Source: an uncultured delta proteobacterium (GTDB taxonomy: Bacteria > Desulfobacterota > Binatia > Binatales > Binataceae). From it: a DNA stretch of 64,000 nucleotides. The DNA lies in NCBI GenBank assembly GCA_963724765.1, contig CAVRVY010000002.1, positions 480,001 through 544,000 of the forward strand, written 5' to 3'. The translations under genes were made by a program, and so were the position numbers. Shown piece after piece: positions 20,649 to 46,902 of the stretch (position 1 is the first letter of the stretch; each line of letters begins with the position of its first letter). The notes under the pieces were generated by a model, which ran no database searches, was not told where the DNA came from, and saw nothing but the letters and a program-made list of their open reading frames with translations.

Positions 20649-21524
20649 GTGAACTACCGCAAGAGATTCGTCGTCGAGCCCGGCGCCAAGGTCCGGCTCG
20701 GCAAAATTGACCCGGAATTCAAAGACAAGCACGAAACGAAGGACAGCGCGACGCTGGAGATCCAGAAGCATGTCGAGCGCATGGCCAAGGCGCAGTATCT
20801 GCTGTACGCCGACGGCAAGCGGTCACTGCTGGTCGTCCTGCAGGCGCTAGACGCCGGTGGCAAGGACGGCGTGGTGCGCCACGTGTTCAGCGCCATGAAC
20901 CCGCAGGGGACGTCGGTCTTTGGCTTCAAGCAACCGAGTGAGTTAGAAGCCGCACATGATTTCCTCTGGCGCGCCCACCTGCACACGCCTGGCAAAGGGG
21001 AAGTTGTGATCTTCAACCGGTCGCATTATGAGGACGTACTCATCGTGCGCGTGCACAAGTTGGTAACGGAGGCGGTTTGGTCGAAGCGTTATGAGTTGAT
21101 CAATGACTTCGAGAAGCTCCTCAGCGAGAACGGCACGCGCATTCTCAAGTTCTATCTCCACATTAGCCCAGAGGAGCAGCTGGATCGCTTCGAGCAACGG
21201 CTCGATGACCCGCTGCGGCAGTGGAAAATCAGCGAGGCCGACTACTCGGAGCGCAAGTTGTGGCCGGATTATATCGAGGCGTACGAGGACGCCATGGAAA
21301 GGACGAGCACTAAGCACGCCCTATGGTACGTGATCCCGTCCAACCACAAGTGGTTCCGCGATCTGGCCATCTCCGAGATTCTCGCCGACACGTTAGAGGA
21401 CATGGAGCTGAAGCTGCCGCCAACGCGGGTGGACATTGCGGATATCCGACGCAAGTATCACACCGCGCAGGCGCAGCAGGCGCGGCGAGGCCACAAGCCG
21501 CCGAAGCAGTCGCGCAAGAAGTAA
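20649..21524 (+). CDS. ppk2: Polyphosphate kinase 2 family protein
   Basis: QALDAGGKDG, HDFLWR, FNRSHYEDVL, WYVIPSNHKWFR. Confidence 0.93.
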   Translation: MNYRKRFVVEPGAKVRLGKIDPEFKDKHETKDSATLEIQKHVERMAKAQYLLYADGKRSLLVVLQALDAGGKDGVVRHVFSAMNPQGTSVFGFKQPSELEAAHDFLWRAHLHTPGKGEVVIFNRSHYEDVLIVRVHKLVTEAVWSKRYELINDFEKLLSENGTRILKFYLHISPEEQLDRFEQRLDDPLRQWKISEADYSERKLWPDYIEAYEDAMERTSTKHALWYVIPSNHKWFRDLAISEILADTLEDMELKLPPTRVDIADIRRKYHTAQAQQARRGHKPPKQSRKK

Positions 21525-21607
21525 GCACGCCTCTATGAGCTAGTGGACGTGACACACGGAAAGCTGCAACATAGCGAGCGCTGCCCATTGCTCTTTGCCG
21601 GCAAAAC

Positions 21608-21684
21608 TGGCGCCCCCTGCGGGATTCGAACCCACGGCCCCAGGATTAGGAATCCTGTGCTCTATCCATCTGAGCTAAGGGGGC
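21608..21684 (-). tRNA. tRNA-Arg(CCT)
   Basis: GCCCCCT/AGGGGGC acceptor stem, TAGCTCAG..GGATAGAGC D arm, CAGGA-TTCCTAA-TCCTG anticodon arm, GTTCGAATC, encoded CCA. Confidence 0.97.
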
Positions 21685-21697
21685 GCGCCAATATTTC

Positions 21698-22960
21698 TTA
21701 TGTTTTCAAGGCATTTAGCGGCTTTATCGATTTGAGCCGACCCGCCTGACGTGATTTAGTGCCCACTTTTTGCCCACTTTTTTCGGGATTCGGGAGGAAC
21801 CCCTGCGCGAAGCGGTCGGCCGCGCCCGTATCGGAATCCTTGAACCAGTGTGAATAGACCTTCAGCGTTACTGCCGGGTTCGAATGACCAAGGCGATGCT
21901 GCACCTCGGTGATCGGTGCGCCAGACGCTATCAGCCCGCTCGCATACGAGTGCCGCAACGTCTTGATGTTGGCGTCCCTGAGCCCCGCGCGCCGCAGCGC
22001 GGGATATAAACCCTGGCGCAAGACATTCGAGCGATGCAGGGGTTGACCATCGAGGCGACAAAACACCAGATCGTGTTCCGACCTCGGGCTCTGCAGCTTC
22101 CAAACCTTCAAGGCGGCAATCAGCCCCGCCGGCAGAGGCATCGTGCGATATCCTGAGCGCGTTTTGGGTTCGTAGAACTTCGGGCGCACACGGCCCTCTT
22201 CATCGGTCTTGCGTGCCCACGACAGCGAACGCCTCACAAAAAGCCGACCGTCGTCGAGTTGGATATCGGTCCACTTCAGCGCGTAAGCCTCCTCGGGTCG
22301 CAGCCCTGTGGCCGCGACCGTCGCGAACAACGTACGGTGAAGGCCCGGCTCGGCATGATCGAGCAATCTTCTGATCTCCTCGGCGGTCAGTACCTCGTCT
22401 GGTCTCACGGCCCGCAATCCTTGACCGCTCTCCGGACGGTCCGCGTCCGTAGTTACTTCTGCAACCTCCCTACGTGGCCTCTCCGCGATTGCTGCCGGGT
22501 TCGTTGCGGTGTAGCCGCGCCGGATCGCAAGCTTAAACACCGCGGCACATGTCGTCAGAACCGCGCTCACGGTCTTGGCGCCTAGTTTCGTGCACAGCTC
22601 GTCGCGGACGCTCTCGATCAGCGCAACGTCGATCCGATCGAGCCGTAGGTTGTCGAGCTTCGCCAGGTGGCGCAGGTGAACACGCCAGCCTCCAAGCGTC
22701 GCGGGATGGCGATTCGATTTCTCGCGCATCCACTCTTCGCCGACCTTCGCAAAAGTTGGAATCCTCGCGGGATCGACGTACTCGCCGCGGGCGGCCTTGA
22801 CGGCCGTGGTGGCGAGGTATTTTTCAGCGGCTTTCTTCGTCGGGAACTCAATCCGCTTCCGTGGTCCCGTCAGTCCTTGCGGCCGATAGTCGAGCCGCCA
22901 GGTGCAATCGCAATCGCCGCCCATGCATGCGGGCTTGTGATACCGCTTGATCAAAGCCAT
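21698..22960 (-). CDS. int: Tyrosine recombinase/integrase
   Basis: TGLRPEE (R), TLRHSYAS, LGHSN..TLKVYSH (H, Y); stop 14 bp from the tRNA. Confidence 0.95.
   Translation of the reverse strand: MALIKRYHKPACMGGDCDCTWRLDYRPQGLTGPRKRIEFPTKKAAEKYLATTAVKAARGEYVDPARIPTFAKVGEEWMREKSNRHPATLGGWRVHLRHLAKLDNLRLDRIDVALIESVRDELCTKLGAKTVSAVLTTCAAVFKLAIRRGYTATNPAAIAERPRREVAEVTTDADRPESGQGLRAVRPDEVLTAEEIRRLLDHAEPGLHRTLFATVAATGLRPEEAYALKWTDIQLDDGRLFVRRSLSWARKTDEEGRVRPKFYEPKTRSGYRTMPLPAGLIAALKVWKLQSPRSEHDLVFCRLDGQPLHRSNVLRQGLYPALRRAGLRDANIKTLRHSYASGLIASGAPITEVQHRLGHSNPAVTLKVYSHWFKDSDTGAADRFAQGFLPNPEKSGQKVGTKSRQAGRLKSIKPLNALKT
21760..21781. repeat. Tandem TGCCCACTTTT x2, probable integrase arm-type sites
   Basis: 11-bp direct repeat about 75 bp from the tRNA boundary. 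Confidence 0.65.
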
Positions 22961-22969
22961 GGCGTTACT

Positions 22970-23161
22970 TCACCTCTTCCCAGTCCGCGACCGTTTCTCG
23001 GCGGCAATTTTTTGCAGGAGTCTGGCGGTGGGTTCGGAGATCGCCATTTCGCCGCGCTCCCAGCGGGCCACGGTGTTCGAGGTTACTCCTATGGCCTCGG
23101 CCAAGGCCACCTGAGTCCAGCCGAGTTTTTCTCTGAGCACACGAATTTCCACACCGCTCAT
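22970..23161 (-). CDS. Small XRE-family HTH regulator
   Basis: LREKLGWTQVALAEAIGVTSNTVARWERG. Confidence 0.88.
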   Translation of the reverse strand: MSGVEIRVLREKLGWTQVALAEAIGVTSNTVARWERGEMAISEPTARLLQKIAAEKRSRTGKR

Positions 23162-23197
23162 CACTATACGCAACGTATAGCAAGGCCGGTGGAAAAG

Positions 23198-23602
23198 TCA
23201 AGCGGCTTGGCTGGCGCGCGCGGTCAGAAAGCGTTGCACTTCTTCAATTTTAAAACGGACATAGTGACCGAGTTTGATAGAAGGCAGATTGCCCATCCGG
23301 GCCTGTTCCCTGACCCACGATTGCGGGACTCCAAAGAGCTTGGCGAGATCAGGGGCGCTCAGAAGGGCGCTGCCAAGGCTCTTGCTGTCGCTGTAGGCGA
23401 TGCGCTCGCTCAGCATCAGGGCGAGCAGCGCACCTTCGAGGGTCTTGAGCGCTGCGACGCGCCCGGCAAGCTGGGTCAAGAGCTGGGGCACGGACTCGAG
23501 AACAATTCCCCTTGTCAGCGAGGGATCGGCCAGAAGCTCCTCGATAGTTACGGGCGATAGCGATGCCCGCGGCGTGGGACGATGCGGTGCTTGATACGAC
23601 AT
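23198..23602 (-). CDS. Excisionase-like protein (C-terminal HTH_17-type domain)
   Basis: LLSAPDLAKLFGVPQSWVREQARMGNLPSIKLGHYVRF; GGAG RBS before ATG 23602. Confidence 0.8.
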   Translation of the reverse strand: MSYQAPHRPTPRASLSPVTIEELLADPSLTRGIVLESVPQLLTQLAGRVAALKTLEGALLALMLSERIAYSDSKSLGSALLSAPDLAKLFGVPQSWVREQARMGNLPSIKLGHYVRFKIEEVQRFLTARASQAA

Positions 23603-23663
23603 GAATACTCCGACAGCACAAGCGTTCCACACCTCCACAACAGACTCATCCACTGAATCATTG

Positions 23664-23679
23664 AGCAACCGCGATGCCG
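23664..23679 (-). promoter_or_regulatory. Sigma54 -24/-12 promoter upstream of xis-HTH-int
   Basis: Minus strand CGGCATCGCGGTTGCT = GG-N10-GC with TTGCT, about 60 bp before the xis ATG. Confidence 0.65.
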
Positions 23680-23783
23680 TTCTTCGACGCGCCCTGCGAG
23701 ACACGGAGTTAGGCTCACGCGGTTTTGATTCGCCTCTTGCGCGAGAGGATTTGGCGATCAGACGGCGGAAAGGCCGGTGTGCA

Positions 23784-23872
23784 TGTACAAGTTCTGCACA
23801 GGGAGCCGAAATCCCATGGAATTGGTTAAAGAATTCGCCTCCTCGGCCGATCCCGTATGCAAATCTTGCACA
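23784..23872. promoter_or_regulatory. Two related 17-bp imperfect palindromes, candidate bEBP enhancer sites
   Basis: TGTACAAGTTCTGCACA (23784-23800) and TATGCAAATCTTGCACA (23856-23872). Confidence 0.5.
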
Positions 23873-24159
23873 TTTTGATTCACCCGATCTCGTCCGCCCT
23901 CAGAGCGGTTTGGACAAGCGCCTAGCGCAGCTACACGAGGATCGGAACGCGACGTTGGTCAAGGCTGGACGTGGTACAGACTTGTTTCGCTCTCAATTGC
24001 ATGAAGTTTCATCAATTTCATTCGTCTAACTTTAATAAGCCGTCAGATGAGAGAAACAAATTGTCATGACCTTATCAAGTTATCAATAGATTCACTAGTG
24101 CGATCATGGCCGTCGTGCGGGAGGGGTGATGGAGAGTCAGAAAGGTTCGCGAGCGAACC

Positions 24160-25134
24160 ATGCTAGTAGGCCGGTCGCCAGCGGCACGTCGGCTTATCAG
24201 CCTGATCGAACAAGTCGCCGCTACGACTGCTCCTGTCCTCATCACGGGTGAGACCGGTACCGGCAAGGAACTTGCCGCGAAATCCATCCACACGCGTTCC
24301 GCGCGCCGTGTCCGGCCATTTGTTGCGATCAATTGCGCCGCTGTACCGGAGAGCCTGGTCGAAAGCGAATTATTCGGGCATGAGCGTGGCTCGTTCACCG
24401 GGGCTCATCAGCAACAAGCAGGGTGTTTCGAGCGCGCAAATGGCGGCACGCTGCTGCTCGACGAGATAACGGAGATGCGGCCTGAGATGCAGGCCAAGCT
24501 GCTCCGGGTGTTGGAAGAGAAGGAGATCAGGCGTCTGGGCGGGGGCCGGGAGATTCCAGTCGATGTGCGGGTCCTGGCGGCGTCCAACCGTCAGCCTCAG
24601 CGCGCCATCCGCGAGGGCCGGCTTCGCCAAGACTTGTACTTCCGGCTGTGCGTGGTTTCGATCGAGCTTCCGCCGCTGCGCGAACGGATTGAGGATGTGC
24701 CGTTATTGGCTGCGGAGTTCCTCCGACAGTTCAATCGGGAACACCGCAAGGCGGTTCAGGGAATAGATGAGGATTGCTTCGTCTCGCTCAAGGCCTACTC
24801 GTGGCCGGGCAATATTCGTGAGTTGCGCAACGCTATCGAGCGCGCGGTCATCTTGTGCCGCTCGTCGATGCTTTCCTCTGGTGATTTGCCGATTGATCTG
24901 GCCGACCAAGCTGCGATGGGGCGCGACCCGGATTTCACGATTCGGCTTGGCGCGTCGCTGAAAGAGGTCGAGGCCGAACTGATTTTCCGGACATTGGCAT
25001 CCGTCGGCGGAAACAAGACCCGCGCGGCCCGCATTCTCGGCGTCGCACGGCGTAGCCTTTACAACCTGCTCGAACGCCACGAAGGATACGCAGCGACCGG
25101 CGGTCCGAATGATAAGCGTACTCGCAATAGTTGA
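24160..25134 (+). CDS. Sigma54-dependent activator (AAA+ and Fis-HTH) with no sensory domain
   Basis: GETGTGKE, GSFTGA, LLLDEI, WPGNIREL, GNKTRAARILG. Confidence 0.92.
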   Translation: MLVGRSPAARRLISLIEQVAATTAPVLITGETGTGKELAAKSIHTRSARRVRPFVAINCAAVPESLVESELFGHERGSFTGAHQQQAGCFERANGGTLLLDEITEMRPEMQAKLLRVLEEKEIRRLGGGREIPVDVRVLAASNRQPQRAIREGRLRQDLYFRLCVVSIELPPLRERIEDVPLLAAEFLRQFNREHRKAVQGIDEDCFVSLKAYSWPGNIRELRNAIERAVILCRSSMLSSGDLPIDLADQAAMGRDPDFTIRLGASLKEVEAELIFRTLASVGGNKTRAARILGVARRSLYNLLERHEGYAATGGPNDKRTRNS

Positions 25135-25805
25135 AATAGCGTTCGAATCGACGACCTGCTGATTACGAAACTCTTCTCTACCGCGAAGATGGTGACAGAA
25201 GGTGACGCAGCGATTTTCGCGTGACCAAGAAATGCCTGTCAGACAGGGACATTCAGTGACAACCGCTGATTTTGAATCATCATCGAGGCCCAGGAAGCGC
25301 GCCATATCGGATTTTCCGCCAATGCAGGCATCGCCAGTGCCGTATCATGACCAGTCCTCAGGTCCTCGCGCAGCGTTCTCGCCAGATACTTGAGAATGTC
25401 CAGAAATCCGCGAGCCGCCGCAGTAAGCACCGCTTCGGTGACGACGCGTAGTGGCGCGGCGAAGGTCCGCCGCAGTCGCCCGGTATCGCAGTCAAGAACC
25501 TCTTTAACTCGCGCGAGCTTTCTGGATCGGACCGCGCGGATGAACCTGCCGACCGCCGCTTTCGACAGATCGGGCGCCAGAGGGCCACCATTCTATCGCG
25601 GTCCGCGCGTTGTTCACCAAGTAAAAAGATGATCGGGGCAAGCATAACCATGCCCCACTCGCTTCATCGTGCGCCGCGACAGCCCGTTCGGCTGAAGATC
25701 CTCGGCGCTTCGTGGCGGCGAGGCGATTTTGTCCTTGAACCATCCGAGAACCTTGCCCATGTGTAGCCTATAAGTTACAATCAACGAGGTTCGCAGGTAT
25801 CAATA

Positions 25806-26399
25806 ATGGCTATCATCAAGATCAATCCAATCAGGATCGAGGGGCGATGGCGCTCCGGCATCGCGCTGGATCTGCACACAACGAGCAGCACGCCGATCGG
25901 ACCTAACGAATTTGGACATATGCAGTTTGACACGGTGCGGCCAGCGATCGCTGAACTGCTTTATCGATTGAAAAACCGGGCCGACCGCGAGGCGGCGGTG
26001 CCAATAATTGAGACGGCGGCGAGCTTCTTGTCGGACCAGCGCGACAAATTCGACGCCATCGTGCCAGTGCCTCCGTCACACCACCGAACCGTACAGCCGG
26101 TTATCATTCTCGCTGATGGAATCGGAAAAGCGCTGAGCGTTCCAGTTCTCTCGTGCATTAGGACGACTCGACCGACATCGCAGTTGAAGGACATCACTGA
26201 ACCTGAGGAGCGGAAGAAGCATGTCGAAGGGCTCTATGAAGTGGACGTAGAGCAAACGCGCGGACTAAAGCTCCTTCTTTTCGATGACCTTTTCCGTTCT
26301 GGAACGACCATGAATGCGATCACGGATATACTGCTCAATCCGGGCAAAGCGAGGGTCGTCCGTGCCCTGACCATCACCAAGACACGGAGCAAGCAATGA
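25806..26399 (+). CDS. ComF-like phosphoribosyltransferase
   Basis: LLYRLKN, IVPVPPS, LLFDDLFRSGTT PRPP-binding loop. Confidence 0.85.
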   Translation: MAIIKINPIRIEGRWRSGIALDLHTTSSTPIGPNEFGHMQFDTVRPAIAELLYRLKNRADREAAVPIIETAASFLSDQRDKFDAIVPVPPSHHRTVQPVIILADGIGKALSVPVLSCIRTTRPTSQLKDITEPEERKKHVEGLYEVDVEQTRGLKLLLFDDLFRSGTTMNAITDILLNPGKARVVRALTITKTRSKQ

Positions 26400-27337
26400 A
26401 CACGATTTTTATTGGTGGCTCGCGGCACGTCTCTCGTTTGCCGGCAGAGGTGAAAAGACGTCTGGACAATGTAGTTACCAGCGGTCACCAAGTCATTGTC
26501 GGTGACGCAAACGGGGCCGACAAAGCCGTGCAAAAGCATCTTCTGGATAAGCGTTACGATAAGGTCGTCGTCTTCTGCACGGGCGATACCCCAAGAAACA
26601 ATTTAGGAACCTGGCGCACGCATCATGTTGATATACCCAAAAATACTAAGGGATTTCATTTCTACGCGGCTAAGGACCGCGAGATGGCGCGTGAAGCTGA
26701 TTTTGGATTGATGATCTGGGATGGCAAAAGCCCCGGCACGGTTCTTAACGTGATGCGCCTCGCAATCGCCGGAAAGATTGCCGTTCTTTTCAACGTGCCT
26801 GAGAAAAACGTCGTCAACATCAAGACATTGGACAGTTGGAAGAACTTCATCTCCCATTGTAGCCGAGATGTCCAAATGGAGATAAAGCAGCGGGCCACTC
26901 CTGAGGAATGGCGGCTCGCCGAATCCAATAATCAAGCGAGCTTTTTGCCGTCGCTTGATGAGGCGGGCGCTGCACTTAAGAGCGCGCCCCAGCGAGAGTC
27001 CTCCTCGGAACCCCTGAACTCAAGTGCGTTGGAGGAGGTTGTCAAAGTACTGAACCGTGCGTTAGCTCACGGTGATGCAACCGCGATAATGAACCAACTT
27101 GGCATCATTGCGCGCGAACGTGGGATGAGTCACGTCGCGCGCGAAACTGGTCTTGCGCGTGAAAGCCTTTATCGGTCTCTCGACGCAAAAGGGAATCCCG
27201 AATTCGGCACGGTCTTAAAAGTGCTCGCATCCATAGGCCTGCGGCTTGAGGCTAAATCGGAAAGCCTTCCGACCGCACCCGACCAAGACCAGTCGTCCCT
27301 TGGAATGCCCGGAAGAGGAAAGCCGGGAATTGCATGA
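26396..27337 (+). CDS. SLOG/DprA-like domain fused to an addiction-module antidote HTH
   Basis: IFIGGSR..VGDANGAD..KDREMA..IWDGKSPGT; C-term GMSHVARETGLARESLYRSL..GNPEFGT; ATGA overlap with the PRTase. Confidence 0.8.
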   Translation: MNTIFIGGSRHVSRLPAEVKRRLDNVVTSGHQVIVGDANGADKAVQKHLLDKRYDKVVVFCTGDTPRNNLGTWRTHHVDIPKNTKGFHFYAAKDREMAREADFGLMIWDGKSPGTVLNVMRLAIAGKIAVLFNVPEKNVVNIKTLDSWKNFISHCSRDVQMEIKQRATPEEWRLAESNNQASFLPSLDEAGAALKSAPQRESSSEPLNSSALEEVVKVLNRALAHGDATAIMNQLGIIARERGMSHVARETGLARESLYRSLDAKGNPEFGTVLKVLASIGLRLEAKSESLPTAPDQDQSSLGMPGRGKPGIA

Positions 27338-27436
27338 CGGATTGGGGACAATAAAAGGCCGATCTGTTCTGATCTTGCAGGGAGACCGGTTCATATCGGC
27401 GCTAACCTACTCACAACCGCGAGTCCGATCGAGAAA

Positions 27437-28789
27437 ATGGAAACCGCGCAAACCAACACACCTGACTCTCACGACGTGACGTTGCGGTCTTTATTGAAGC
27501 TACGGAATGGTTCGAAGAATATTCTGCAGAATCGCGAGAATTCGCAGCTGGAATTCAAGGAAACGTTCAATCTTGGCAGCCTTGCGAAATATGGCCGTAC
27601 GATGGCGGCTTTCGCCAACAACAGGGGTGGCTACATCGTCTTCGGCGTTGAGCCCTCTCCCCATCGCCTGAAAGGTGTGAACAAAACCAAGTTCGAGGAG
27701 TGTGACCCCGCGCAAGTAACGCAGTTCCTGAACGCTCACTTCGGCCCCGAGATCATCTGGGAAATGGAAACCGTCGAATTCTTCGGGACATCGCTCGGCT
27801 ACATTTACATTTCTGAGGCAGATGAAAAGCCGGTCGTCGCCATATCAAACGCGGCAGATATCAGAAGCGGAGAAGTTTATTTTCGGTACAAAGGTCAGAC
27901 TTCGACCATTCGATACCCAGAGCTCAGAGCAATTATTGACGCTCGAATTACGCGTGAGCGACAGGCGTGGCTTCAGCACCTCCGTACGATTGAGCGGGTT
28001 GGTCCCCGAAATGTCGGCATCCTCGACACCATCCATGGAAAGCTTTATGGGGCCGGGACTCCGTTTTTGATAGATGAGAAGCTGCTACGGCAGCTTAAAT
28101 TCATTCGGCGTGGTCAGTTTTCCGACGGCGAGGGGGCGCCGGCCCTGCGCGTGCTTGGAGATGTGCAATCGATCAAGGGTATCGAGAAAGAAAAGCCCGT
28201 GCCGACCGGTATCCACGCTGACGATTTGATAACGGCATTTTTGGCGCAACGGCCTTTGGACGAATCGGAGGCTCGAAGCTATCTGAGGGAGGCCACGTAT
28301 CAGAACACGCCGTACCTGCCGATCCATTACCTCGTCAATCTTTCCGGGTTGTCTCAATCGGAGGCCCAGGGCCTTATCAAGACAAGCCAGTCGTCGCTGA
28401 CGGGCCAAAAGAAAAATCTCACTGAAAGAATTGCGCGAGATCAGGCCGTGAAGCTAATGGGTACCGTACAATCCGCTCCCAATATCTTGACCTCCACGGA
28501 ATTTGAAAGGTCATTCGAGCAAGCTAAGACCGTCAAAGAACGGCGTTCTCTTCTTGTTGCGACAATGCTGCGAAGCCCGAGGTTGTTGCAAGAATTTGTA
28601 CCCAGCCTGCCGCTCGGGCTGTTATCCGAAGCCGTAACCCACCTCAATACGTCGGATCTTCGAAAGCTTAAGGGAGACCTCCTCGAACTTCTCCTGAGCG
28701 CTTTCGCGAACCGCTTTCAGGACGCGTCGAGTTCGGAAAGATCAGCTTTCAGGAAGGCCGTGGCCTTCTGCGACGAAAAGCTGAATTGA
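27437..28789 (+). CDS. AlbA_2/Schlafen-domain protein with unknown C-terminus
   Basis: RENSQLEFKE..MAAFANNRGGYIVFGV. Confidence 0.85.
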   Translation: METAQTNTPDSHDVTLRSLLKLRNGSKNILQNRENSQLEFKETFNLGSLAKYGRTMAAFANNRGGYIVFGVEPSPHRLKGVNKTKFEECDPAQVTQFLNAHFGPEIIWEMETVEFFGTSLGYIYISEADEKPVVAISNAADIRSGEVYFRYKGQTSTIRYPELRAIIDARITRERQAWLQHLRTIERVGPRNVGILDTIHGKLYGAGTPFLIDEKLLRQLKFIRRGQFSDGEGAPALRVLGDVQSIKGIEKEKPVPTGIHADDLITAFLAQRPLDESEARSYLREATYQNTPYLPIHYLVNLSGLSQSEAQGLIKTSQSSLTGQKKNLTERIARDQAVKLMGTVQSAPNILTSTEFERSFEQAKTVKERRSLLVATMLRSPRLLQEFVPSLPLGLLSEAVTHLNTSDLRKLKGDLLELLLSAFANRFQDASSSERSAFRKAVAFCDEKLN

Positions 28790-29009: not shown

Positions 29010-29891
29010 CTAAGAGAGCCGACCGAGGATGTAATCGGCGGCGCGCTGCGCATGGGCGGCAGCATGGATCATAAGCTTGCGGTCAGCACGAAGCCGGTTT
29101 AACCAGCCAGAGACGTATGCGGCTTGGTTCTGGATGACCGCGTTTGAGATTCCGGCTTCGGCACAGAGGAATGCGGCTCCCAATTCCGCGCACAGTTCTT
29201 CTTTCGAGTAGACGGCGGAACCGAACGGGGCGGCTTCGCAAACCCCTTCTCGCGCAAGGCGTTTCTCACTTCCAGAACTATGGACGCTCTCATGCATCGC
29301 AGTGGCGTAAAATTCCTCGGCGCTGGTGAAAAGTTCACGCGGCGGCAGGGTGATGCGATCGGTAATCGGACTATAGAAAGCTTTGGAGCCTGCGTACTGA
29401 ATCTCGGGCGGGTTGGGCATGCCGGCGATGATCCGCTCGGCCGCTTCGATCGGATCGTGCTTGTGCGTCTCGACCTTCGGCAGCTTGTCGAGCACTGCCT
29501 GCGGCAGTTCGCATTGTTCGAGGTTGAACAGGCGATAATATCTGAGCAGGAACCGGCGGCGCGTCTTCCCGCCGGTCTCCTCGTTGTCGAGGTCTTCCGT
29601 GCTCTGCTTGGCATCGTCAACCTTCCAGAACACGACAACCGTGCTCTCCTCGCCTTTGCGGATGTGTCCGCCAAGTTCGTTCGCCTGGCGCATCGTCAGC
29701 CAATACGGTGAAACGTATTTGGATGCCGAGAGCAGAAAGTGGTTGATGCCGCGATATGGCTTCTTGCTCACAAGGTTGCGCGGTAGTCCGGTTGAGGTCC
29801 ACGGCCTGCGCCACGGTACCACGCCGCTTTCAAGCAGATTGATGATCTTTTCGGTCACGATTGCGTAGATGTCCATTTCCGTAGTCTCCAA
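29010..29891 (-). CDS. ardC: Antirestriction protein ArdC
   Basis: VPWRRPW, YRGIN, W.T.RQA..LGG.IRKGE, HESVHS, YSKEELCAELGA. Confidence 0.93.
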   Translation of the reverse strand: METTEMDIYAIVTEKIINLLESGVVPWRRPWTSTGLPRNLVSKKPYRGINHFLLSASKYVSPYWLTMRQANELGGHIRKGEESTVVVFWKVDDAKQSTEDLDNEETGGKTRRRFLLRYYRLFNLEQCELPQAVLDKLPKVETHKHDPIEAAERIIAGMPNPPEIQYAGSKAFYSPITDRITLPPRELFTSAEEFYATAMHESVHSSGSEKRLAREGVCEAAPFGSAVYSKEELCAELGAAFLCAEAGISNAVIQNQAAYVSGWLNRLRADRKLMIHAAAHAQRAADYILGRLS

Positions 29892-30346: not shown

Positions 30347-31019
30347 TGGTTTTGTTGCGCCCGCTTCCCGTCATCGGGCAGGGCGTGCTGCGCTTTGTTT
30401 TCATCACCGCGCAATTTTTTTCCGCGCGGCCCTCTCCAACTGGACAGGAGGGCCGTGCGCAGATTTCCAGATGCGCGAGCGGAGCGGGCGGCAGGACGTG
30501 ACAGAGCGAAGCGGCCCGAAGGGCTGGCGCGTCGTGCTTGTATGGTGTCCACTGCCGATGCTGCTGCTCGCTCATAGTGAAAGAGGAACTGAACATTTTT
30601 TCCCTCGACCTTGTATGTGTTGAAGAACCAACTTTTCCCCTCGCGCCCTCACTTGATAATGGGTGCGAGGGAAAAGTTGATTGGGGACGTGGGGGTGGAT
30701 GTGCGGCTAAAAAATCTGAGATGCGCTGCCGCGACGATCTGCGGAGGCGGGCCAGGATTCTTTTCCTGGCCAACGACGCCGATCGTGGCGAGCCAACCAA
30801 TGAATGAGATCGGCTAAGATGCGAAAAAAGTTTCCCGAAGAGGTGTCGCCGCCGGCCGTGCTGAAGGGTAATTCCTTGTGCGCTAGATTGGCGCCCTCGT
30901 CCGGGGCTCAGGGCTCGAACGGTATCCAGAGGCGCAAGCGGCGTCCTCGAATGGACAAGCAAGAGCGTGAGTTCCGGCTCCGAGGCTCGGGGAACCAAGT
31001 CGTGGAAGGAGGAAGGTTG

Positions 31020-32217
31020 ATGAGGTTTGCGGGAATCGACGTCGGAGCGGAGCGTCACATGGTGGCAATGGTGGATACGGAGGGCAAGGTGCTATGTCGT
31101 TCCAGCCCTTTTGGCGAGGACGCGTCGGGCTATGCGCATCTGTTCGAGCTGCTCGGCCCACCCGAGGGTTGTCTGCTCGCCTTGGAAGCCACTGGACACT
31201 ACTGGCGGAATCTATTCGTCGCTTTGTTAGCAAAGGGCTACGCAGTCGCGGTGTTGAATCCATTGCGTACGCGGCGCTTTGCCGAGGAGGAGCTGCAGCG
31301 GACCAAGACCGACGCGATCGATGCGTTGGGAATCGCGCGGTTTGCTGCCCAGAAGCGACCGCCAGCGACGCAACTGCCTGACGTCGCGACGGAAGAGCTG
31401 CGTGAATTGGCGCGGCTGCGCGAGCGGCTCCAGGAGGACTTTGCGAGCCGTCTGAGGCAGTTACATCGAGCGGTTGACCTTGGCTTTCCCGAGTTCACGC
31501 GGTATGTGCGCACGCTCGAGAGCCAGCTCGCCGCTACCATTCTGTCGCGCTACCCAACTGCGGCGTCGTTTCGTGGGACGTCGCGTAAAGAAGCTCGCTC
31601 GGATCGTTTACGACGGTTCGCACAAGATCGGTGAAGAACTCGCTCGCGCTCTGATCGAGGCAGCCGCAAAGTCAGTCGGGAGTTATCACTCCGAGCCCTA
31701 CCGATTGCGGATCAAATACCTCTGCGAGGATCTTGATGTGCTGCGCCGCCGGCTGAAGGATCTCGCGCGCGACATTGAAAGCAAGATCGACGATCACGAG
31801 GTAGGCAAACTCCTAACGACGATCGATGGGATCGGACCATTAACCGCCGCCTGTCTGATTGCAGAACTCGGAGATCCGGCACGCTTTCGCAGTGCCGGCG
31901 CGATCGCGAGCTATGTTGGCGTTGCGCCACGACTGCGGCAATCAGGGAAAAAGCGCTTCTTTTCCGGCAGCCCCACTATTCCGTTCGGGAATGCTCGTCT
32001 GCGCAAGGCGCTCTGGATGGTGGTTCTCAACGCCGTGCGATGCAATCCGTGGCTGCGCCAGTATTACGAGCGCCTTCGGGCTGCGGGCAAACCGGGCAAG
32101 GTCGCCGTAATCGCAGCGATGCGAAAGCTGCTCGCAGCGGTATGGAGCGTGGCTATTCACCGCCGACCCTTCGTTCCGCACCTATCTCCACCCGCAACCG
32201 CCAGCGTCGTGACGTAA
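31020..32217 (+). mobile_element. IS110-family DEDD recombinase, +1 frameshift near 31584
   Basis: GIDVG, LEATGHYW, KTDAIDA, TIDGIG, RQSG (catalytic Ser), GNARLR, MRKLL. Confidence 0.92.
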
Positions 32218-32497
32218 GCGTGTGACTGCATCCGGCCGGTGACACTGCGGGCGCGGCACATGAGTGGCACCTTCTATCAGGGAAGGTGCCAAAACGACAC
32301 AATCTTATGTGGACATCGACGCGTGTGCCGGTTCCCTGGCGTCAGCGACCTTCTGCACAGCCGGCGGTCGGTCTCGCAACTAACAGCGAACCCTAGTTCA
32401 CTGCAGGGCGAATCGTGCGCTCCGCAGGAAGCGGAGCGGCCTGCCGCGTTCGAACCCCGACGAACCTTCACACTCCGCGTCTGCGGACTGAGGCAAA

Positions 32498-32725
32498 TGG
32501 CGTGGGCGCTTCCGCCGCAGGAGTTGAGGCGCTTTCGGAATTCCTGACCGGCCTATCCGCAACGCCTGGCATGGCCTTCCTGTTGGTCCTACATCGAGAC
32601 CCAACCCATCCGAGCCTGCTCATCGATATTCTGTCGAAAACGACCGGCGTACCAGTGCTTGAAGCACAAGACGGCATGGCATTGGAGATGGACCATGTTT
32701 ACGTCGTTCCCGCCATCTGCACCGT
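32498..32725 (+). pseudogene. CheB methylesterase-domain fragment
   Basis: GVGASAAGVEAL..GMAFLLVLH.DP..S.L..IL..DHVYVVP; no start, truncated. Confidence 0.8.
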
Positions 32726-32971
32726 CGCGGCGATAGGTTGAAGATGCTCCAGGTGCGCCGCGTGTCAGACAGTCGCGTTGCTGATGTCGGTGATGTCCTG
32801 GATCGCCAGGAGGAGAGCGGATTCGCTTCGAGCAATCGGGAGCAGGCTTTTAGCTCATCGAAGATACTGACCCTTATAGCCGGCATCTTCCTCTTCTGGA
32901 TCGGCGAACCCAGATCCCGAGGTGATAGATTTGGACCGGGCCGGTCGCTGGGTTGCTTCGCGCACGTGCCG

Positions 32972-33683: not shown

Positions 33684-35408
33684 GTGGATCGTTTGGTCCC
33701 TCGAACCGGGCCAGCCAGGGAGACCGGAGCGGAGGACGCTACGGCACAAAAAATTGAGGAGCCGTTGCAACGGAGCTTTACGTCTCGACCGATGGAACAC
33801 GAGGCGGATTTTACTGGAGATCGAGCCGGTAGTCGTTATCAGCTCCTTCTTCAGGTTCTTGAGCTGGCGGAGGCGCCATTCAGCGTCAGCGCAATGCTGG
33901 GGGCGCTGGCGAGCGTTATTGAATCGGTAGTCCCGGTGGACGCGATTCCCGTCGTAACGGTGGATGAGCAGGTCCTGCGTTTCTACGCGGCTTACTTCAA
34001 CGGGGTGCCGCGCAAGGATGGCGATTCGCTCGCGGATTATGCGATGCGAGCTCTGCGCCGGTGTCCTGTCGGGCGGGCGGAAGCGCGTGTGCTGGAGACC
34101 TTCCCAATCCGTGGTTCAGCAACTGAGCACGTGGGCCGCACCCGCGGTGTGCTGGTGCGCCATGGTTTGGATCGCGAGCCGCTCTTCCTAGGTGACCGGC
34201 GGCTGCGGTGGTACGGGATGAACTCTTACGTCCGGGTTCCTCTGTTTGCCAAGGAACGGCTGCTTGGCTCGATCGCATTCTGTCGAACAGACGCCCGCCC
34301 TGGCTTCACCAACAACGAGGTTCAGATTCTGACTGAAGTCTCACGGCCCGCAGCGATCGCGCTTTCTCGTTTTCTGGCTTACGAGGAGATCGAGCGCTTG
34401 CGGCACAGCAGTTTCCCCTGGGTTACAGGTGAGGATCACCCAGCCACTGACGAGATAATAGGTACCTCGGAAACGCTTCGGCGGGTGATTGAGCGGGTGA
34501 GCAAGGTGGCGCGGACCGATGCCCCGGTTTTGATTTCAGGTGAGACCGGCACCGGCAAGGAATTGCTCGCGAATATGCTGCATCAGCTGTCTGGGCGGCG
34601 CGGCCGATTGGTCAAGGTGAATTGTGCAGCCTTGCCCGAAACCCTGATGGCCGCCGAGTTATTCGGCCACGAGCGAGGCGCATTCACCGGTGCCTGGCAA
34701 CGCCGCGAAGGCCATTTTGAGACCGCGGCTGGCGGCTCGATTTTACTTGACGAGGTCGGCGAACTACCGCCGCCTGCGCAGGCGGCCCTGCTGCGGGTGC
34801 TGCAGGACGGAGAATTCCAGCGAATCGGTGGCAGCCGGACTCTCCGGACGAATGCGCGAGTGATCGCTGCGACAAACCGCAGCCTAGTCGAGGCGGTTCG
34901 TCAAGGCCGTTTCCGTGAGGACCTCTTCTATCGACTCAATGTAGTGCCTATCAGGGTGCCGCCTTTGCGCGAGCGCACCGAAGACATTGTCGAATTGGCG
35001 AACCGCTTCGCAGCGCGTTACTCGCAGGCTATGGGCCGCACACCAGGCGTCTTCGAGCGCGAAACACTCGATGCGTTGCTGTCGTATGCGTGGCCAGGAA
35101 ACGTTCGCGAGTTACAAAATGTGATAAGGCGAGGAGTAGTCCTTTCCAATGGTCCAGCGATCGACCTGGACGACGAATTCCTAGGACAAGTGCATGGAGT
35201 GGAAAACCCGGCCACAGTGATCGGAGCCAAGGTAAGTGGGTGTGAGCGGGAACTGATTGAACAGGCTCTCAAAAAAGCAGCAGGAAAAGTCGCTGGTCCG
35301 AAAGGGGCCGCTGCACGGCTGCGCATAGCGCCTTCCACGCTTGAGTATAAGATAAGAAAGTACCATATCGATAAGCTCCATTTTCGTGCCGACGCGGCAG
35401 GCGACTGA
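33684..35408 (+). CDS. GAF-domain sigma54-dependent activator (start uncertain)
   Basis: GAF-like SYVRVPL..LGSI; GETGTGKE, GAFTGA, WPGNVREL, C-terminal HTH. Confidence 0.9.
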   Translation: MDRLVPRTGPARETGAEDATAQKIEEPLQRSFTSRPMEHEADFTGDRAGSRYQLLLQVLELAEAPFSVSAMLGALASVIESVVPVDAIPVVTVDEQVLRFYAAYFNGVPRKDGDSLADYAMRALRRCPVGRAEARVLETFPIRGSATEHVGRTRGVLVRHGLDREPLFLGDRRLRWYGMNSYVRVPLFAKERLLGSIAFCRTDARPGFTNNEVQILTEVSRPAAIALSRFLAYEEIERLRHSSFPWVTGEDHPATDEIIGTSETLRRVIERVSKVARTDAPVLISGETGTGKELLANMLHQLSGRRGRLVKVNCAALPETLMAAELFGHERGAFTGAWQRREGHFETAAGGSILLDEVGELPPPAQAALLRVLQDGEFQRIGGSRTLRTNARVIAATNRSLVEAVRQGRFREDLFYRLNVVPIRVPPLRERTEDIVELANRFAARYSQAMGRTPGVFERETLDALLSYAWPGNVRELQNVIRRGVVLSNGPAIDLDDEFLGQVHGVENPATVIGAKVSGCERELIEQALKKAAGKVAGPKGAAARLRIAPSTLEYKIRKYHIDKLHFRADAAGD

Positions 35409-35459
35409 CGCGATTCAAAACTCGGAATTCTGTGAGTTCGTTGACAAACTCCTGAGATC

Positions 35460-35545
35460 TTGCGAATACCTTCGCAAAATCTTCCAGGAGGCGCGCATGT
35501 CAGACGGAGTATCATGCCGCAAACTGGCATGGCGCGATTCTTGAT
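35460..35545 (+). promoter_or_regulatory. Palindrome plus sigma54-like promoter of the dioxygenase operon
   Basis: TTGCGAA-N4-TTCGCAA (35460-35477); TGGCGCGATTCTTGAT (35530-35545, -12 GA variant). Confidence 0.55.
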
Positions 35546-35599
35546 TCATAGAGACACTGGTGGTCGCCGGCATTCAGGTCAAGCCAATGGTCGTATGCG

Positions 35600-36865
35600 A
35601 TGATGGATCCAGAAAAATTGATAAACTTAGAGCGCAAGACCGTCAGCCCGCGGGTTTTTTCCGATCCTGAAGTCCATCAGGCGGAGCAGGAACGGGTCTT
35701 CACGCGATGCTGGCTGTACGTCGGACATGATAGCCAGGTGCCGAACCCGGGCGACTTTGTCAGCGGCTTTATGGGAGAAGAGCCGGTGATTGTATGTCGC
35801 GGGCCCGACCGGCAAATACGCGTGTTCCTCAATACGTGCCGGCATCGCGGGATGCTGGTGTGCCGGGTGGAAGAGGGCAACGCGAAATTTTTTCGATGCC
35901 CCTACCACGGATGGACCTACGATCTTGAGGGAAACCTGACCGGCGTTCCGGACTACCGTAAGGCTTATCACGGCGACCTCAAGCGTGAGGAATGGCCATT
36001 GCTGCAGGCGCCCAAGGTCAGTTCCTATCATGGGCTGATCTTTGCCTGCCTAGATGAGCATGCAGTCAGCCTGGAAGAGTACCTTGGAGATTTCCGGTGG
36101 TACCTGGATCTGCAGTTCAACCGTACCGAGAGCGGGATGATGACGCTGCCGGGTACGCACAAATGGACGCTCAAGGCGAACTGGAAGTTTGCCGCCGAGC
36201 AATTTGGCGGCGACAACTACCACGCGATGTGGGCCCATGAGAGCGGCGTCAGAATTTCCCTCGCGCAGCAGTTTGGCGGCGAGCATCCGTGGACCAACGA
36301 CTGGGAAGCGAAGACCAAGGAAGGTCATGGCTGGATAAATTTTGCTTTCGCGGATCCGCCGGGAATCGCGGAAGTCGTCGGCCCCTACACGGCGTGGCTG
36401 CGCGAACAGGCGCGCAATCGCCTGACGCCCACTCAGATCGAGCAAATCGGATGCGTACACGTGGGAACCGTGTTTCCGAATTTCTCGATACTCTCGTTCC
36501 TGGGATTTCTGTCCGTGCGCGTCTGGAATCCGCGCGGGCCGACGCAGCTCGATGCGTGGTCATGGGGAATGGTCGAACGTGATGCGCCGGCGGAAATAGT
36601 AAAGCTCGCGCGCGACATCCAGATACGTACTTTTTCGCCGGCGGGAATCTTCGAGCAGGACGACGGCGAGATGTGGTCATACTGCACCGAAGCGTCGGGC
36701 GGTGCGTACCGCCGCCGATTTCCATTGAACTATCAGATGGGAGCGGGGCATGAGCGGGCCGACGCCGATCGTCCAGGCCTGATCCATCCACCCCCGACTG
36801 AGATCGGCGTGTTCGGTTTTTGGGAACGCTGGCGCCGGCAAATGGCCAACGAAGGAACGCGATAG
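35600..36865 (+). CDS. Aromatic ring-hydroxylating dioxygenase alpha subunit
   Basis: CRHRG..CPYHGW Rieske; NWK..AEQF..DNYH..H; EQDDGE. Confidence 0.95.
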   Translation: MMDPEKLINLERKTVSPRVFSDPEVHQAEQERVFTRCWLYVGHDSQVPNPGDFVSGFMGEEPVIVCRGPDRQIRVFLNTCRHRGMLVCRVEEGNAKFFRCPYHGWTYDLEGNLTGVPDYRKAYHGDLKREEWPLLQAPKVSSYHGLIFACLDEHAVSLEEYLGDFRWYLDLQFNRTESGMMTLPGTHKWTLKANWKFAAEQFGGDNYHAMWAHESGVRISLAQQFGGEHPWTNDWEAKTKEGHGWINFAFADPPGIAEVVGPYTAWLREQARNRLTPTQIEQIGCVHVGTVFPNFSILSFLGFLSVRVWNPRGPTQLDAWSWGMVERDAPAEIVKLARDIQIRTFSPAGIFEQDDGEMWSYCTEASGGAYRRRFPLNYQMGAGHERADADRPGLIHPPPTEIGVFGFWERWRRQMANEGTR

Positions 36866-36867
36866 TC

Positions 36868-37365
36868 ATGGATCGCGTCGGTTTGCGACAGCAGCTCGAA
36901 GAGCTGCTCTATCGAGAGGCCTGGTTGCTGGATCAGGATCGGCTCGAAGAGTGGCTGGATCTGCTCAGTGAAAACATTCACTACTGGGCGCCCGTGCGGG
37001 CCGACATGAATCGAGGCAAAGAGGACTTCAGTCCGCCGCTCAGATTGGCATTCTTCGATGACAACAAGGACGGGCTCAGACTGCGCGTCGCCCGGATTCG
37101 CACCGGCGCTGCGCATGCCGACGAGCCGCCCTCACGCGTGCGTCACCTGATAACTAACGTTCAGGTAGTGGAAACGCCGGACGCGGAAACGGCGAAAGTC
37201 GCCTCAAATTTCCTGGTATTCAAAAGCCGCCGCAACCGCGAAGAGAACCTGTTCGTCGGATGCCGGGAGGATACCTGGCGGCTCCACGGTGGCGCATGGA
37301 AGCTCGATGAACGAATGATCCTGCTCGATCACAACGTGATCGAGAACATCACGGTGCTCTTCTGA
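36868..37365 (+). CDS. Ring-hydroxylating dioxygenase beta subunit
   Basis: LYREAWLLD..EWL..YWAP; PPSRVRHLITNV; GCRED. Confidence 0.93.
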   Translation: MDRVGLRQQLEELLYREAWLLDQDRLEEWLDLLSENIHYWAPVRADMNRGKEDFSPPLRLAFFDDNKDGLRLRVARIRTGAAHADEPPSRVRHLITNVQVVETPDAETAKVASNFLVFKSRRNREENLFVGCREDTWRLHGGAWKLDERMILLDHNVIENITVLF

Positions 37366-37394
37366 GCGGTCTGCCCCCACTGGATATTGAAACG

Positions 37395-38192
37395 ATGGAC
37401 CCGAGCGCAGCACAACTATTCGACCTGGGTTCTAAGGTTGCCCTGGTTACGGGTGGCGCCAAGGGAATCGGACGCGGCATCGCCGAGGTACTGGCGGCGG
37501 CGGGCGCCGCAGTCGCAGTCGCGGACATCGACATTGAGGGCGCGAACTCCGTGGCGCAGGCGCTGCAGAACCGGGGCCTCGGCGCGATCGCAATCCAGAC
37601 CGACGTGGCCCAGGAGGAATCGGTAAAGGCCCTGGTGCAAGGGGTGTATGATCACTTCAAGCGCCTGGACATCCTGGTTAACAACGCCGGCATTTTCCCG
37701 ATGAAGCGGTTGCGCGAACTCGACGCGGCGACCTGGGACCGCACGAACGGAGTCAATCTTCGCGGGGCCTATCTCTGCACGCGGCACGCCGCCGAACGAA
37801 TCATCGCGGGAAACGCGGGCGGGCGGATCATCAACATCTCAACTATCAATACTGCGCGCACGTATCTGGGTATGGCGCACTATGACGCCAGCAAATACGG
37901 ACTCAACGCGTTGACTAAAGCGAGCGCTCTCGAGTACGCGCCGTTTGGAATCACCGTCAATGCGATCGCGCCGGGCGCGGTGAAAACTCCCGGCTCGCTC
38001 AAGGTGCGGAGCGAACTGGGAGGCGGATCCGTCGAGGCCGCGGATGCGGAGTTCGCAAAGCGCATCCCTCTAGGGCGCTGGGCCGAACCCGAAGATATCG
38101 GTCGAGCCGTGTTGTGCTTGGCCGGGCGAGCGGCAGATTATATTACCGGGCAGATTATCTATGCGGACGGAGGCTTGATGCTCGGGTTTTGA
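37395..38192 (+). CDS. SDR dehydrogenase (probable dihydrodiol dehydrogenase)
   Basis: TGGAKGIG, NNAG, YDASK. Confidence 0.88.
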   Translation: MDPSAAQLFDLGSKVALVTGGAKGIGRGIAEVLAAAGAAVAVADIDIEGANSVAQALQNRGLGAIAIQTDVAQEESVKALVQGVYDHFKRLDILVNNAGIFPMKRLRELDAATWDRTNGVNLRGAYLCTRHAAERIIAGNAGGRIINISTINTARTYLGMAHYDASKYGLNALTKASALEYAPFGITVNAIAPGAVKTPGSLKVRSELGGGSVEAADAEFAKRIPLGRWAEPEDIGRAVLCLAGRAADYITGQIIYADGGLMLGF

Positions 38193-46856: not shown

Positions 46857-46902
46857 AGCAGATGGGCCTCACTCCTGTAAAGTTATTTGTGGGACACAAT
46901 AC
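45753..46902 (-). mobile_element. IS630-family insertion sequence, 1150 bp, TA target duplication
   Basis: TIRs GTGTTGTGTCCCATTAATAAGTTTACAG / GTATTGTGTCCCACAAATAACTTTACAG; TA at 45751-52 and 46903-04. Confidence 0.93.

Follow-up and report, generated by a model that had tools for sequence, protein, structure and literature searches.

We describe a gene cassette in which the recombination genes of a genomic island are likely to be driven by an activator that the island itself encodes. The cassette lies in a 64-kb stretch of DNA, here called the window (positions 480,001 to 544,000 of contig CAVRVY010000002.1), from an uncultured soil bacterium of the family Binataceae (Binatota). On one strand, beside a tRNA gene, is an operon for an excisionase-like (xis-like) protein, an Xre-family helix-turn-helix (HTH) protein, and a tyrosine integrase (Int). 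On the other strand is the gene of an NtrC-type activator, a bacterial enhancer-binding protein (bEBP) without a sensor domain, which would act on a sigma-54 promoter in front of the operon. Comparison with related loci indicates that the cassette is real and conserved, and that it is most likely a sigma-54/bEBP switch on the island's recombination genes. The analysis was computational throughout and covered the window and these related loci. The features of the cassette are listed below.

21608..21684, minus strand: tRNA-Arg(CCT) (ARAGORN; Rfam tRNA, 67.8 bits).
21698..22960, minus strand: tyrosine integrase of 420 amino acids (aa), the last gene of the operon (Phage_integrase PF00589, E 1.9e-24, plus SAM-like domains).
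22970..23173, minus strand: Xre-family HTH protein of 67 aa, the middle gene (HTH_3, E 2e-13).
23198..23602, minus strand: excisionase-like protein of 134 aa, the first gene (HTH_17, 30.6 bits against a cut-off of 27).
23603..23653, minus strand: predicted 5' untranslated region (UTR) of ~51 nt with ribosome-binding site GGAG; the transcription start is placed near 23653 from its position relative to the -12 GC.
23679..23664, minus strand: -24/-12 element CGGCAT-CGCGG-TTGCT (CGGCATCGCGGTTGCT) with GG-N10-GC spacing, conserved in related loci.
23748..23761, minus strand: conserved block CTGATCGCCAAATC between enhancer and promoter (mean conservation 0.81 in 23 representatives).
23777..23800, no strand assigned: proximal putative enhancer palindrome TGTGCAGAACTTGTACA with an adjoining half-site TGCACAC, its centre ~114 bp upstream of the -24 GG.
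23856..23872, no strand assigned: TGTGCAAGATTTGCATA, the distal putative enhancer palindrome, centred 72 bp from the proximal one and ~186 bp ahead of the -24 GG.
24060..24105, plus strand: putative bEBP promoter region with weak sigma-70-like hexamers TTATCA ... CACTAG, placed by alignment of relatives.
24160..25134, plus strand: sensor-less bEBP of 324 aa, with an AAA+ sigma-54 interaction domain, a lid, and a Fis-type HTH (Pfam).

To collect related loci, 22 homologues of the 134-aa protein were aligned, and a profile scan of genomes then gave 60 loci, almost all of them from metagenome-assembled genomes (MAGs) of Binataceae filed as 'delta proteobacterium'; the hosts are uncultured Binatota. 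Gene content was assigned by tblastn with the window's proteins. The xis-like, Xre, and int genes were present together in 32 loci, of which L004, L015, and L028 were too short upstream, leaving 29 that could be assessed for the activator.

Sigma-54 promoters show almost no activity without an activator, and transcription starts about 12 nt past the GC of the -12 element. In the window, the 3' end of the box CGGCATCGCGGTTGCT stands 62 nt before the xis ATG. The box matches 9 of the 11 specified positions of YTGGCACG-N4-TTGCW, differs from TGGCAC-N5-TTGCW at two positions, and retains GG and GC exactly 10 nt apart. Because motif counts in the window alone match chance, what makes the box significant is its placement and its conservation in related loci. 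The window and 28 of the 30 loci examined have GGCAY-N5-TTGCT at a distance of 72-78 nt on the 5' side of the xis ATG. The 60 loci total 811,622 nt, in which 30 of 34 strict matches occupy this fixed place. Between the fixed blocks, no fewer than ten different spacers of 5 nt are found. In a MAFFT alignment of the 330 nt upstream, reduced to 23 representatives of less than 90% identity (mean pairwise identity 58%), conservation was 0.96 for the ten specified positions of the box, 0.69 for the spacer, and 0.66 for all columns. Conserved blocks around a free spacer fit a -24/-12 element and would not be expected of sequence that is conserved as a whole.

Two related palindromes resembling TGTGCAA-N3-TTGCACA lie upstream of the box, at 23784-23800 (two mismatches) and 23856-23872 (one mismatch). 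They are the sole matches in the 64 kb at up to three mismatches, a count that is not above chance (2 against 2.2 expected). Across the 60 loci, 49 of 51 palindromes with at most two mismatches sit at fixed positions upstream of xis, with centres 113-117 and 183-188 bp from the GG and 70-72 bp apart. Mean conservation among the 23 representatives is 0.89 for the proximal and 0.85 for the distal copy; the family consensus is a perfect 7-N3-7 inverted repeat, with the proximal form reading TGTGCAAAGATTGCACA-TGCACAC. These distances fall within the ~80-200 bp expected for bEBP sites, at which binding is predicted only. Variants of the enhancer track the HTH subgroups of the neighbouring bEBPs, and the window's subgroup has its own variant. 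This match fits cognate binding; shared descent could also account for it.

The bEBP consists of Sigma54_activat (PF00158, E 5.3e-69) from residue 2, AAA_lid_14, and HTH_8 (E 1e-10, residues 267-302). An in-frame TGA at 24127-24129 lies 10 codons 5' of its ATG, and there is therefore no hidden N-terminal sensor domain. Walker A (GETGTGKE), Walker B (LLLDE), and the sigma-54 contact loop (GSFTGA) are intact. The loop reads GAFTGA in most relatives and GSFTGA in the window and its nearest relative; in excerpts of a regulon study, GSFTGA is listed among the loop variants compatible with activation (PMC4641369). The relatives, of 324-330 aa, come from Binataceae. The nearest longer relatives are receiver-containing NtrC-type response regulators of Binataceae (58-60% identity), whose receiver and linker are absent here, and the closest solved structures are ZraR (1ojl, E 3.7e-87) and NtrC1/NtrC4 (4l4u, 1ny5). 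In NtrC1 and DctD, removal of the receiver reportedly gives constitutive ATPase activity. The bEBP of the window is probably active whenever it is made, since it is devoid of a sensor and similar to bEBPs of the NtrC1/ZraR type, whose receivers inhibit activity.

A role as PspF orthologue was ruled out by the scores for TIGR02974 (273 against 443.55 bits) and NF008622 (227 against 529 bits), and no NCBIfam equivalog reaches its cut-off with this bEBP. A predicted complex of its AAA+ residues 1-255 with the xis-like protein gave no verdict (score 0.00). In a phage collection, 67 records match the bEBP at less than 60% identity, and none among the matches listed resembles the cassette. The best of these records have genes annotated as those of a host (response regulator, purine ligase) or are unannotated contigs, and these are likely host DNA filed as phage.

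The operon is tightly packed, with 24 nt between the xis-like and Xre genes and 9 nt between Xre and int. The int stop lies 13 nt from the co-oriented tRNA-Arg(CCT), which marks the island boundary. The xis-like gene is taken to start at ATG 23602, not at the GTG 23704 of the mechanically called open reading frame (ORF), because nearly all of 120 homologues listed are 131-134 aa long and a GGAG lies 7 nt 5' of this ATG. Blocks of the leader are conserved among aligned relatives; no conserved RNA fold was predicted in the xis 5' UTR (0 pairs, 13 sequences), and the tRNA was the sole result to reach threshold in an Rfam search of 21400-25400. Promoter scans found no sigma-70-like promoter before xis and no other promoter before int. 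The integrase displays the catalytic motifs R, K, H-R, H, and Y when aligned to PDB 3nkh and has relatives at 45-79% identity; by its domain, its R-K-H-R-H-Y residues, and its adjacency to the tRNA, it is a tyrosine integrase of a tRNA-integrating element. The recognition region of the Xre protein is identical in 21 of 21 loci compared.

The order of divergent bEBP, xis-like gene, Xre, and int recurs throughout the loci with full-length relatives. In 26 of the 29 assessable loci, the opposite strand carries a divergent bEBP homologue whose start is no more than 1.2 kb upstream. Of the remaining three, L013 holds a fragment only, and in L029 the gene is 4.3 kb distant. No bEBP gene was present within 8 kb in L003, a remnant in which metabolic genes stand immediately upstream of the proximal enhancer. 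Among 16 cassettes, the identities of bEBP and xis-like protein are correlated (Spearman 0.51, Mantel p ~0.001), as against 0.02 for bEBP and integrase. After int, 31 of 34 relatives scanned carry a tRNA gene, which may be Arg-CCT (in either orientation), Ser-TGA, Ser-GCT, or Leu-TAG. In all, five integrase/tRNA combinations occur under one cassette, and each tRNA target has its own integrase subfamily. The tRNA adjacency and the five combinations identify these as genuine integrative elements.

For the cargo of the related loci, 64 of the 109 listed ORFs were scanned against Pfam, leaving aside the bEBP ORFs and small overlapping ones. Cargo beside the bEBP differs between loci and includes ArdC with SSB, HipA, SIR2 with UvrD, an E1/E2/JAB/patatin protein, a STAND NTPase, insertion sequence (IS) elements, and metabolic genes. 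L005 (2003-5069) holds the window's three cargo genes at 93-96% aa identity, but with a 51%-identical integrase at tRNA-Ser(GCT). Given variable cargo and swapped integrases, the regulatory cassette is the constant part of an exchanging island family. Some MAG contigs carry two cassettes, for example L006 with L020, and L009 and L017 lie in one MAG. In the window, the integrase is found 5' of a complete, co-oriented tRNA-Arg, whereas the 3' side is the usual island geometry; the 5'-side arrangement is common to six relatives (L006, L009, L016, L024, L033, and L039).

These results bear out the original prediction, which was made from the window's letters alone and whose described elements are all found where it placed them. 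It had proposed a -24/-12 box about 60 bp before the xis ATG and two related palindromes 105-190 bp upstream of the box, and both are found as described. The comparison of homologous loci that it suggested recovered the GG-N10-GC box in 28 of 30 and the palindromes at fixed distances. Its description of xis-HTH-int as one minus-strand unit agrees with the spacing of the three genes, and that of a divergent bEBP with a GSFTGA loop and no receiver or GAF domain with the Pfam content and the upstream stop. The idea that followed, that xis-HTH-int stands behind a sigma-54 promoter served by the adjacent sensor-less bEBP, gains support from the conservation of box and palindromes and the presence of the bEBP in 26 of 29 loci.

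In the mechanism that we propose, the island encodes an NtrC-family bEBP that would have lost its receiver domain and linker. Dimers of this protein would bind the two 17-bp palindromes ~114 and ~186 bp upstream of the -24/-12 promoter, assemble into an ATPase ring, loop to the closed sigma-54 holoenzyme at CGGCAT-N5-TTGCT, and open the complex. One transcript would then run from ~23653 through the xis-like, Xre, and int genes. Because sigma-54 promoters are nearly inactive without activator, expression of the recombination genes would require a sufficient amount of active bEBP. Excision would thus be decided at the level of bEBP synthesis, of an antagonist, or of host sigma-54 availability.

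As to bEBP synthesis, the bEBP gene of most relatives is preceded by a sigma-70-like promoter that includes TTGACA (for L009, TTGACA-18-TATTTT, 10/12). A promoter scan of the window's own bEBP upstream region found none. Most relatives start the bEBP with TTG and show no Shine-Dalgarno motif, and the window copy starts with ATG. Two near-palindromes, CTGTTAACAG and CTGTTGACAG, occur ~32 bp apart in L006, L007, L009, and loci like them, ~60-130 nt before the bEBP start, and the TTGACA hexamer of the promoter shares positions with CTGTTGACAG. In the subgroup of the window, CTTTAATAAG and CCTTATCAAG take their place. A palindromic TTCGCGAGCGAA stands just 5' of the bEBP start codon. The pair CTGTTAACAG/CTGTTGACAG looks like operators for a putative repressor. 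The Xre protein as repressor of the bEBP promoter is unsupported: its recognition region is the same in 21 of 21 loci, whereas the promoter region varies by subgroup.

The conserved block at 23748-23761 has the family form TGATCGCCAAA, and the L006 group reads a direct repeat, CGCCAAAT-GAT-CGCCAAAT. Our guess is that the TGATCGCCAAA block is a site for the operon's own HTH proteins, Xre or xis-like. Inspection by eye revealed no IHF- or LexA-like sites in the intergenic region.

A role of the xis-like protein as excisionase or directionality factor is plausible from its sequence and its model. The AlphaFold2 model (pLDDT 79.8) has a disordered start, a long helix at residues 35-70, and a winged helix at 80-132. 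An extra N-terminal helical domain of ~80 residues thus precedes the C-terminal HTH_17, in a protein about twice the size of typical excisionases. At the level of domains, the best structural matches are BldC (6ama) and the RdfS excisionase (8dgl), both weak, with E above 0.01. A fold search of the PDB with the model gave 0 matches at E <=0.001, a PDB profile search with the protein gave BldC only (E 0.012), an ESM Atlas search with residues 1-80 gave no usable match, and a plasmid collection held no match to the protein. With 134 aa and an extra N-terminal helical domain, the protein is a candidate directionality factor.

A number of observations weigh against sigma-54 control of excision, at the box, at the activator, and at the output. 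The box is not statistically unusual inside the window: a loose scan for TGGCAC-N5-TTGCW with two mismatches gave 28 matches against 30.7 expected and is uninformative alone, and the strict GGCAY-N5-TTGCT gave 1 match against 0.31 expected, with at least one match in 28 of 100 shuffles. Two of the 30 loci are exceptions, L020 with TTGGT at -12 and L039, a 48%-identical relative, without the box; more broadly, no box was found upstream of the distant xis relatives L032, L035-L039, and L043-L045. The conservation counts take in related sequences, which are not independent events. The window's enhancers deviate from the family consensus by two positions and one position. Its bEBP promoter hexamers are weaker than those of most relatives, and this copy may be weakly active. 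Elsewhere in the family, bEBPs are truncated in L021 and L025, are aligned in two pieces in L002, L024, and L030, and are reduced to a fragment in L013. We infer a host sigma-54 (rpoN) only from the many intact Binataceae bEBPs and the GAF-type bEBP of the window. On the output side, the xis-like protein is larger than typical directionality factors and falls below the cut-off of NCBIfam 'excise' TIGR01764 (26.5 against 28.8 bits), and an internal int promoter is possible.

These last points are at the centre of a rival explanation, in which promoter and activator are real and the output is not excision: the HTH_17 protein would regulate other island functions, as AlpA- or BldC-like proteins do, and most Int would come from a different promoter. 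The size and extra domain of the xis-like protein, its score for 'excise', its best match being the transcription factor BldC, and its co-variation with the bEBP and not with the integrase all fit such a role. However, the xis-like gene heads a tightly packed unit that ends in int, and every locus with full-length relatives retains this gene order. RdfS, an excisionase, ranks with BldC among the closest domain-level matches, and no other promoter was detected before int. We regard this explanation as unlikely. In another, the cassette family is real and the window copy is a decaying remnant that no longer fires. Both its enhancers are off consensus and its bEBP -35-like hexamer is degenerate; the 42 kb on its right yielded no second att copy or tRNA repeat; the island contains IS110 and CheB fragments, and TrbL was the only type IV secretion system gene recognised; and remnants do exist elsewhere, for example L003, L013, and L021. 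Yet all four ORFs are intact and full length, and the island may extend past the window. The enhancer variant is moreover common to the closest relatives (L001, L002, L005, and L030), so that it looks subgroup-specific, not decayed. Decay of the window copy is, in our judgement, improbable.

A third explanation is that a different DNA-binding protein recognises GGCAY-N5-TTGCT, or that this motif belongs to a sigma-70 promoter, and that the bEBP acts without sigma-54, in the manner of Caulobacter NtrC or TyrR. Two departures from TGGCAC-N5-TTGCW would agree with it, and excerpts of one study document bEBP-like proteins working without sigma-54 (PMC10274813). Such proteins, however, are without the GAFTGA loop, which is kept in this family. 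The box is conserved in the sigma-54 pattern of two fixed blocks with exact spacing and a free 5-nt spacer, no sigma-70-like hexamers were found, and the enhancers lie at a distance typical of looping activators. We consider this explanation very improbable, and sigma-54/bEBP control of the recombination genes the likely one.

Is there a precedent for such control? The nearest is CTnDOT RteB, which we take to be a sigma-54/NtrC-type regulator; it is a partial precedent, as its effect is indirect, and no identical design was found. Our full-text literature search, in which most results were judged from listings and from whose scope subscription journals, older CTnDOT papers, and supplements were excluded, returned no paper with a sigma-54 promoter or bEBP directly before xis/int, and none linking RteB with NtrC. 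The original prediction's statement that no characterised integrative and conjugative element (ICE) has this design thus stands as far as the literature search reaches, with CTnDOT as a qualification. In excerpts of a review, the control of characterised ICEs and islands involves repressors, the SOS response, quorum sensing, RpoS, and FlhDC-like activators, with no sigma-54 case there (PMC5812530). According to the same excerpts, RteA/RteB of CTnDOT act on rteC, which activates the excision operon (PMC5812530). In excerpts of another paper, the marker domains of a CTnDOT-like element include Response_reg, Sigma54_activat, and HTH_8 (PMC10865816), in keeping with an NtrC-type RteB, and in those of a third, Caulobacter NtrC, which is without GAFTGA, binds within a mobile element (PMC10274813).

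The likeness to CTnDOT is that of an element-encoded NtrC-type regulator above the excision genes, there in a cascade with xis2c-xis2d-exc (PMC5812530). RteB differs in having a receiver domain and a cognate kinase, whereas the cassette activator is sensor-less; it acts on rteC and not directly on the excision operon, whereas the cassette has a -24/-12 box directly before xis-xre-int. The CTnDOT integrase lies outside the excision operon, and the excerpted text carries no statement of a sigma-54 requirement.

Other systems share single features. PspF of E. coli and HrpR/HrpS of Pseudomonas syringae are, like the cassette activator, bEBPs with AAA+ and HTH only. The pspF gene is divergent from its sigma-54 target pspA, with enhancers in the shared intergenic region, and the cassette has the same layout. 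The cassette bEBP differs from PspF in being nearer to ZraR/NtrC1 and to Binataceae response regulators, and in having an island recombination operon as its target; unlike the PspF and HrpR/S systems, the conserved cassette holds no gene for a PspA- or HrpV-like antagonist. Aquifex NtrC1 and Salmonella ZraR also combine an AAA+ domain with a Fis-type HTH, but the cassette bEBP is without the whole receiver and linker. Lambda, P4-type islands, and ICEMlSymR7A with RdfS resemble the cassette in having a tyrosine integrase by a tRNA, preceded by a small winged-helix protein of the excisionase family. From these classical xis-int modules the cassette differs in the added N-terminal helix of its xis-like protein, and the window's integrase lies 5' of a complete tRNA.

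In the window, left of tRNA-Arg are housekeeping genes, and right of the cassette are cargo and mobile-element genes, including the following.

25806-28789: a trio beside the bEBP, made up of a ComF-like phosphoribosyltransferase (PRTase), an HI1420-type antidote domain fused to an unassigned N-terminal domain, and a Schlafen/AlbA_2 protein.
29010-29891: ArdC, 5 kb from the cassette.
33684-35408: a second bEBP, with a GAF domain, followed by Rieske dioxygenase alpha and beta subunits and an SDR (cluster to 38192).
59975-61195: a P-type TrbL gene (132.4 bits against a cut-off of 128.85), alone among ORFs without family matches.

The trio is a possible defence or conflict system. The cluster at 33684-38192 is probably sigma-54-controlled catabolic cargo; just before its dioxygenase gene is a -24/-12-like TGGCGC-N5-TTGAT (35530-35545), in which the -12 GC is not intact. 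An IS110-family transposase fragment (DEDD only) and a 108-aa CheB methylesterase fragment at 30804-32741 suggest decay or rearrangement inside the island. An 846-aa AAA_13/AAA_21 (AbiEii-like) ATPase adjoins a protein with a TnsA-like endonuclease N-terminal domain (46663-49873). Further right are a DNA methylase (53148-54380) and a restriction-endonuclease-like fragment, and an ORF6N-domain gene overlaps the end of the TrbL gene. SRAP is also among the genes right of the cassette.

The element had been called an ICE. A tRNA-integrated island with an integrase is indeed present, but ICE status is not established, as TrbL and ArdC are the only conjugation-related genes among the 34 ORFs right of the cassette. 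No relaxase, type IV coupling protein (T4CP), or VirB4 was found among the ORFs scanned, and the island runs past the window. We describe the element as an integrative island, possibly an ICE. A second att end was not detected in the window: the 25-nt tRNA end matches itself only, no 12-mer from 21560-21720 recurs beyond a 14-nt chance match, and neither the tRNA nor its flanks have a repeat of 15 nt or more.

The exchange of integrases under a constant cassette allows a wider reading, which we offer tentatively and hold to be doubtful. The bEBP, enhancers, promoter, and xis-like gene might form a portable excision switch of near-zero leak, exchanged as a unit onto different Xre-integrase-tRNA modules. 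Because the activator is without a sensor, firing would be set by very low bEBP synthesis and by concentration-dependent ring assembly, and excision would be rare, all-or-none, and confined to a subpopulation. Feedback on the switch could come from the co-evolving xis-like protein, with its N-terminal helix. If so, genomes with several islands of different enhancer/HTH subtypes would run orthogonal or cross-activating switches, and bEBP-less remnants such as L003 might be activated in trans.

The cassette occurs in about 30 islands with five integrase/tRNA combinations, and it is therefore a selected design, not a one-off. Its activator, 17-bp enhancers, and promoter also supply a compact, probably orthogonal set of parts for tightly off switches. 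Excision is the committing step in the transfer of islands and ICEs. To this step, sigma-54 control would add the lack of basal activity, an ATP-driven activator, and competition among host sigma factors, and such logic would explain how an island stays silent and yet fires decisively.

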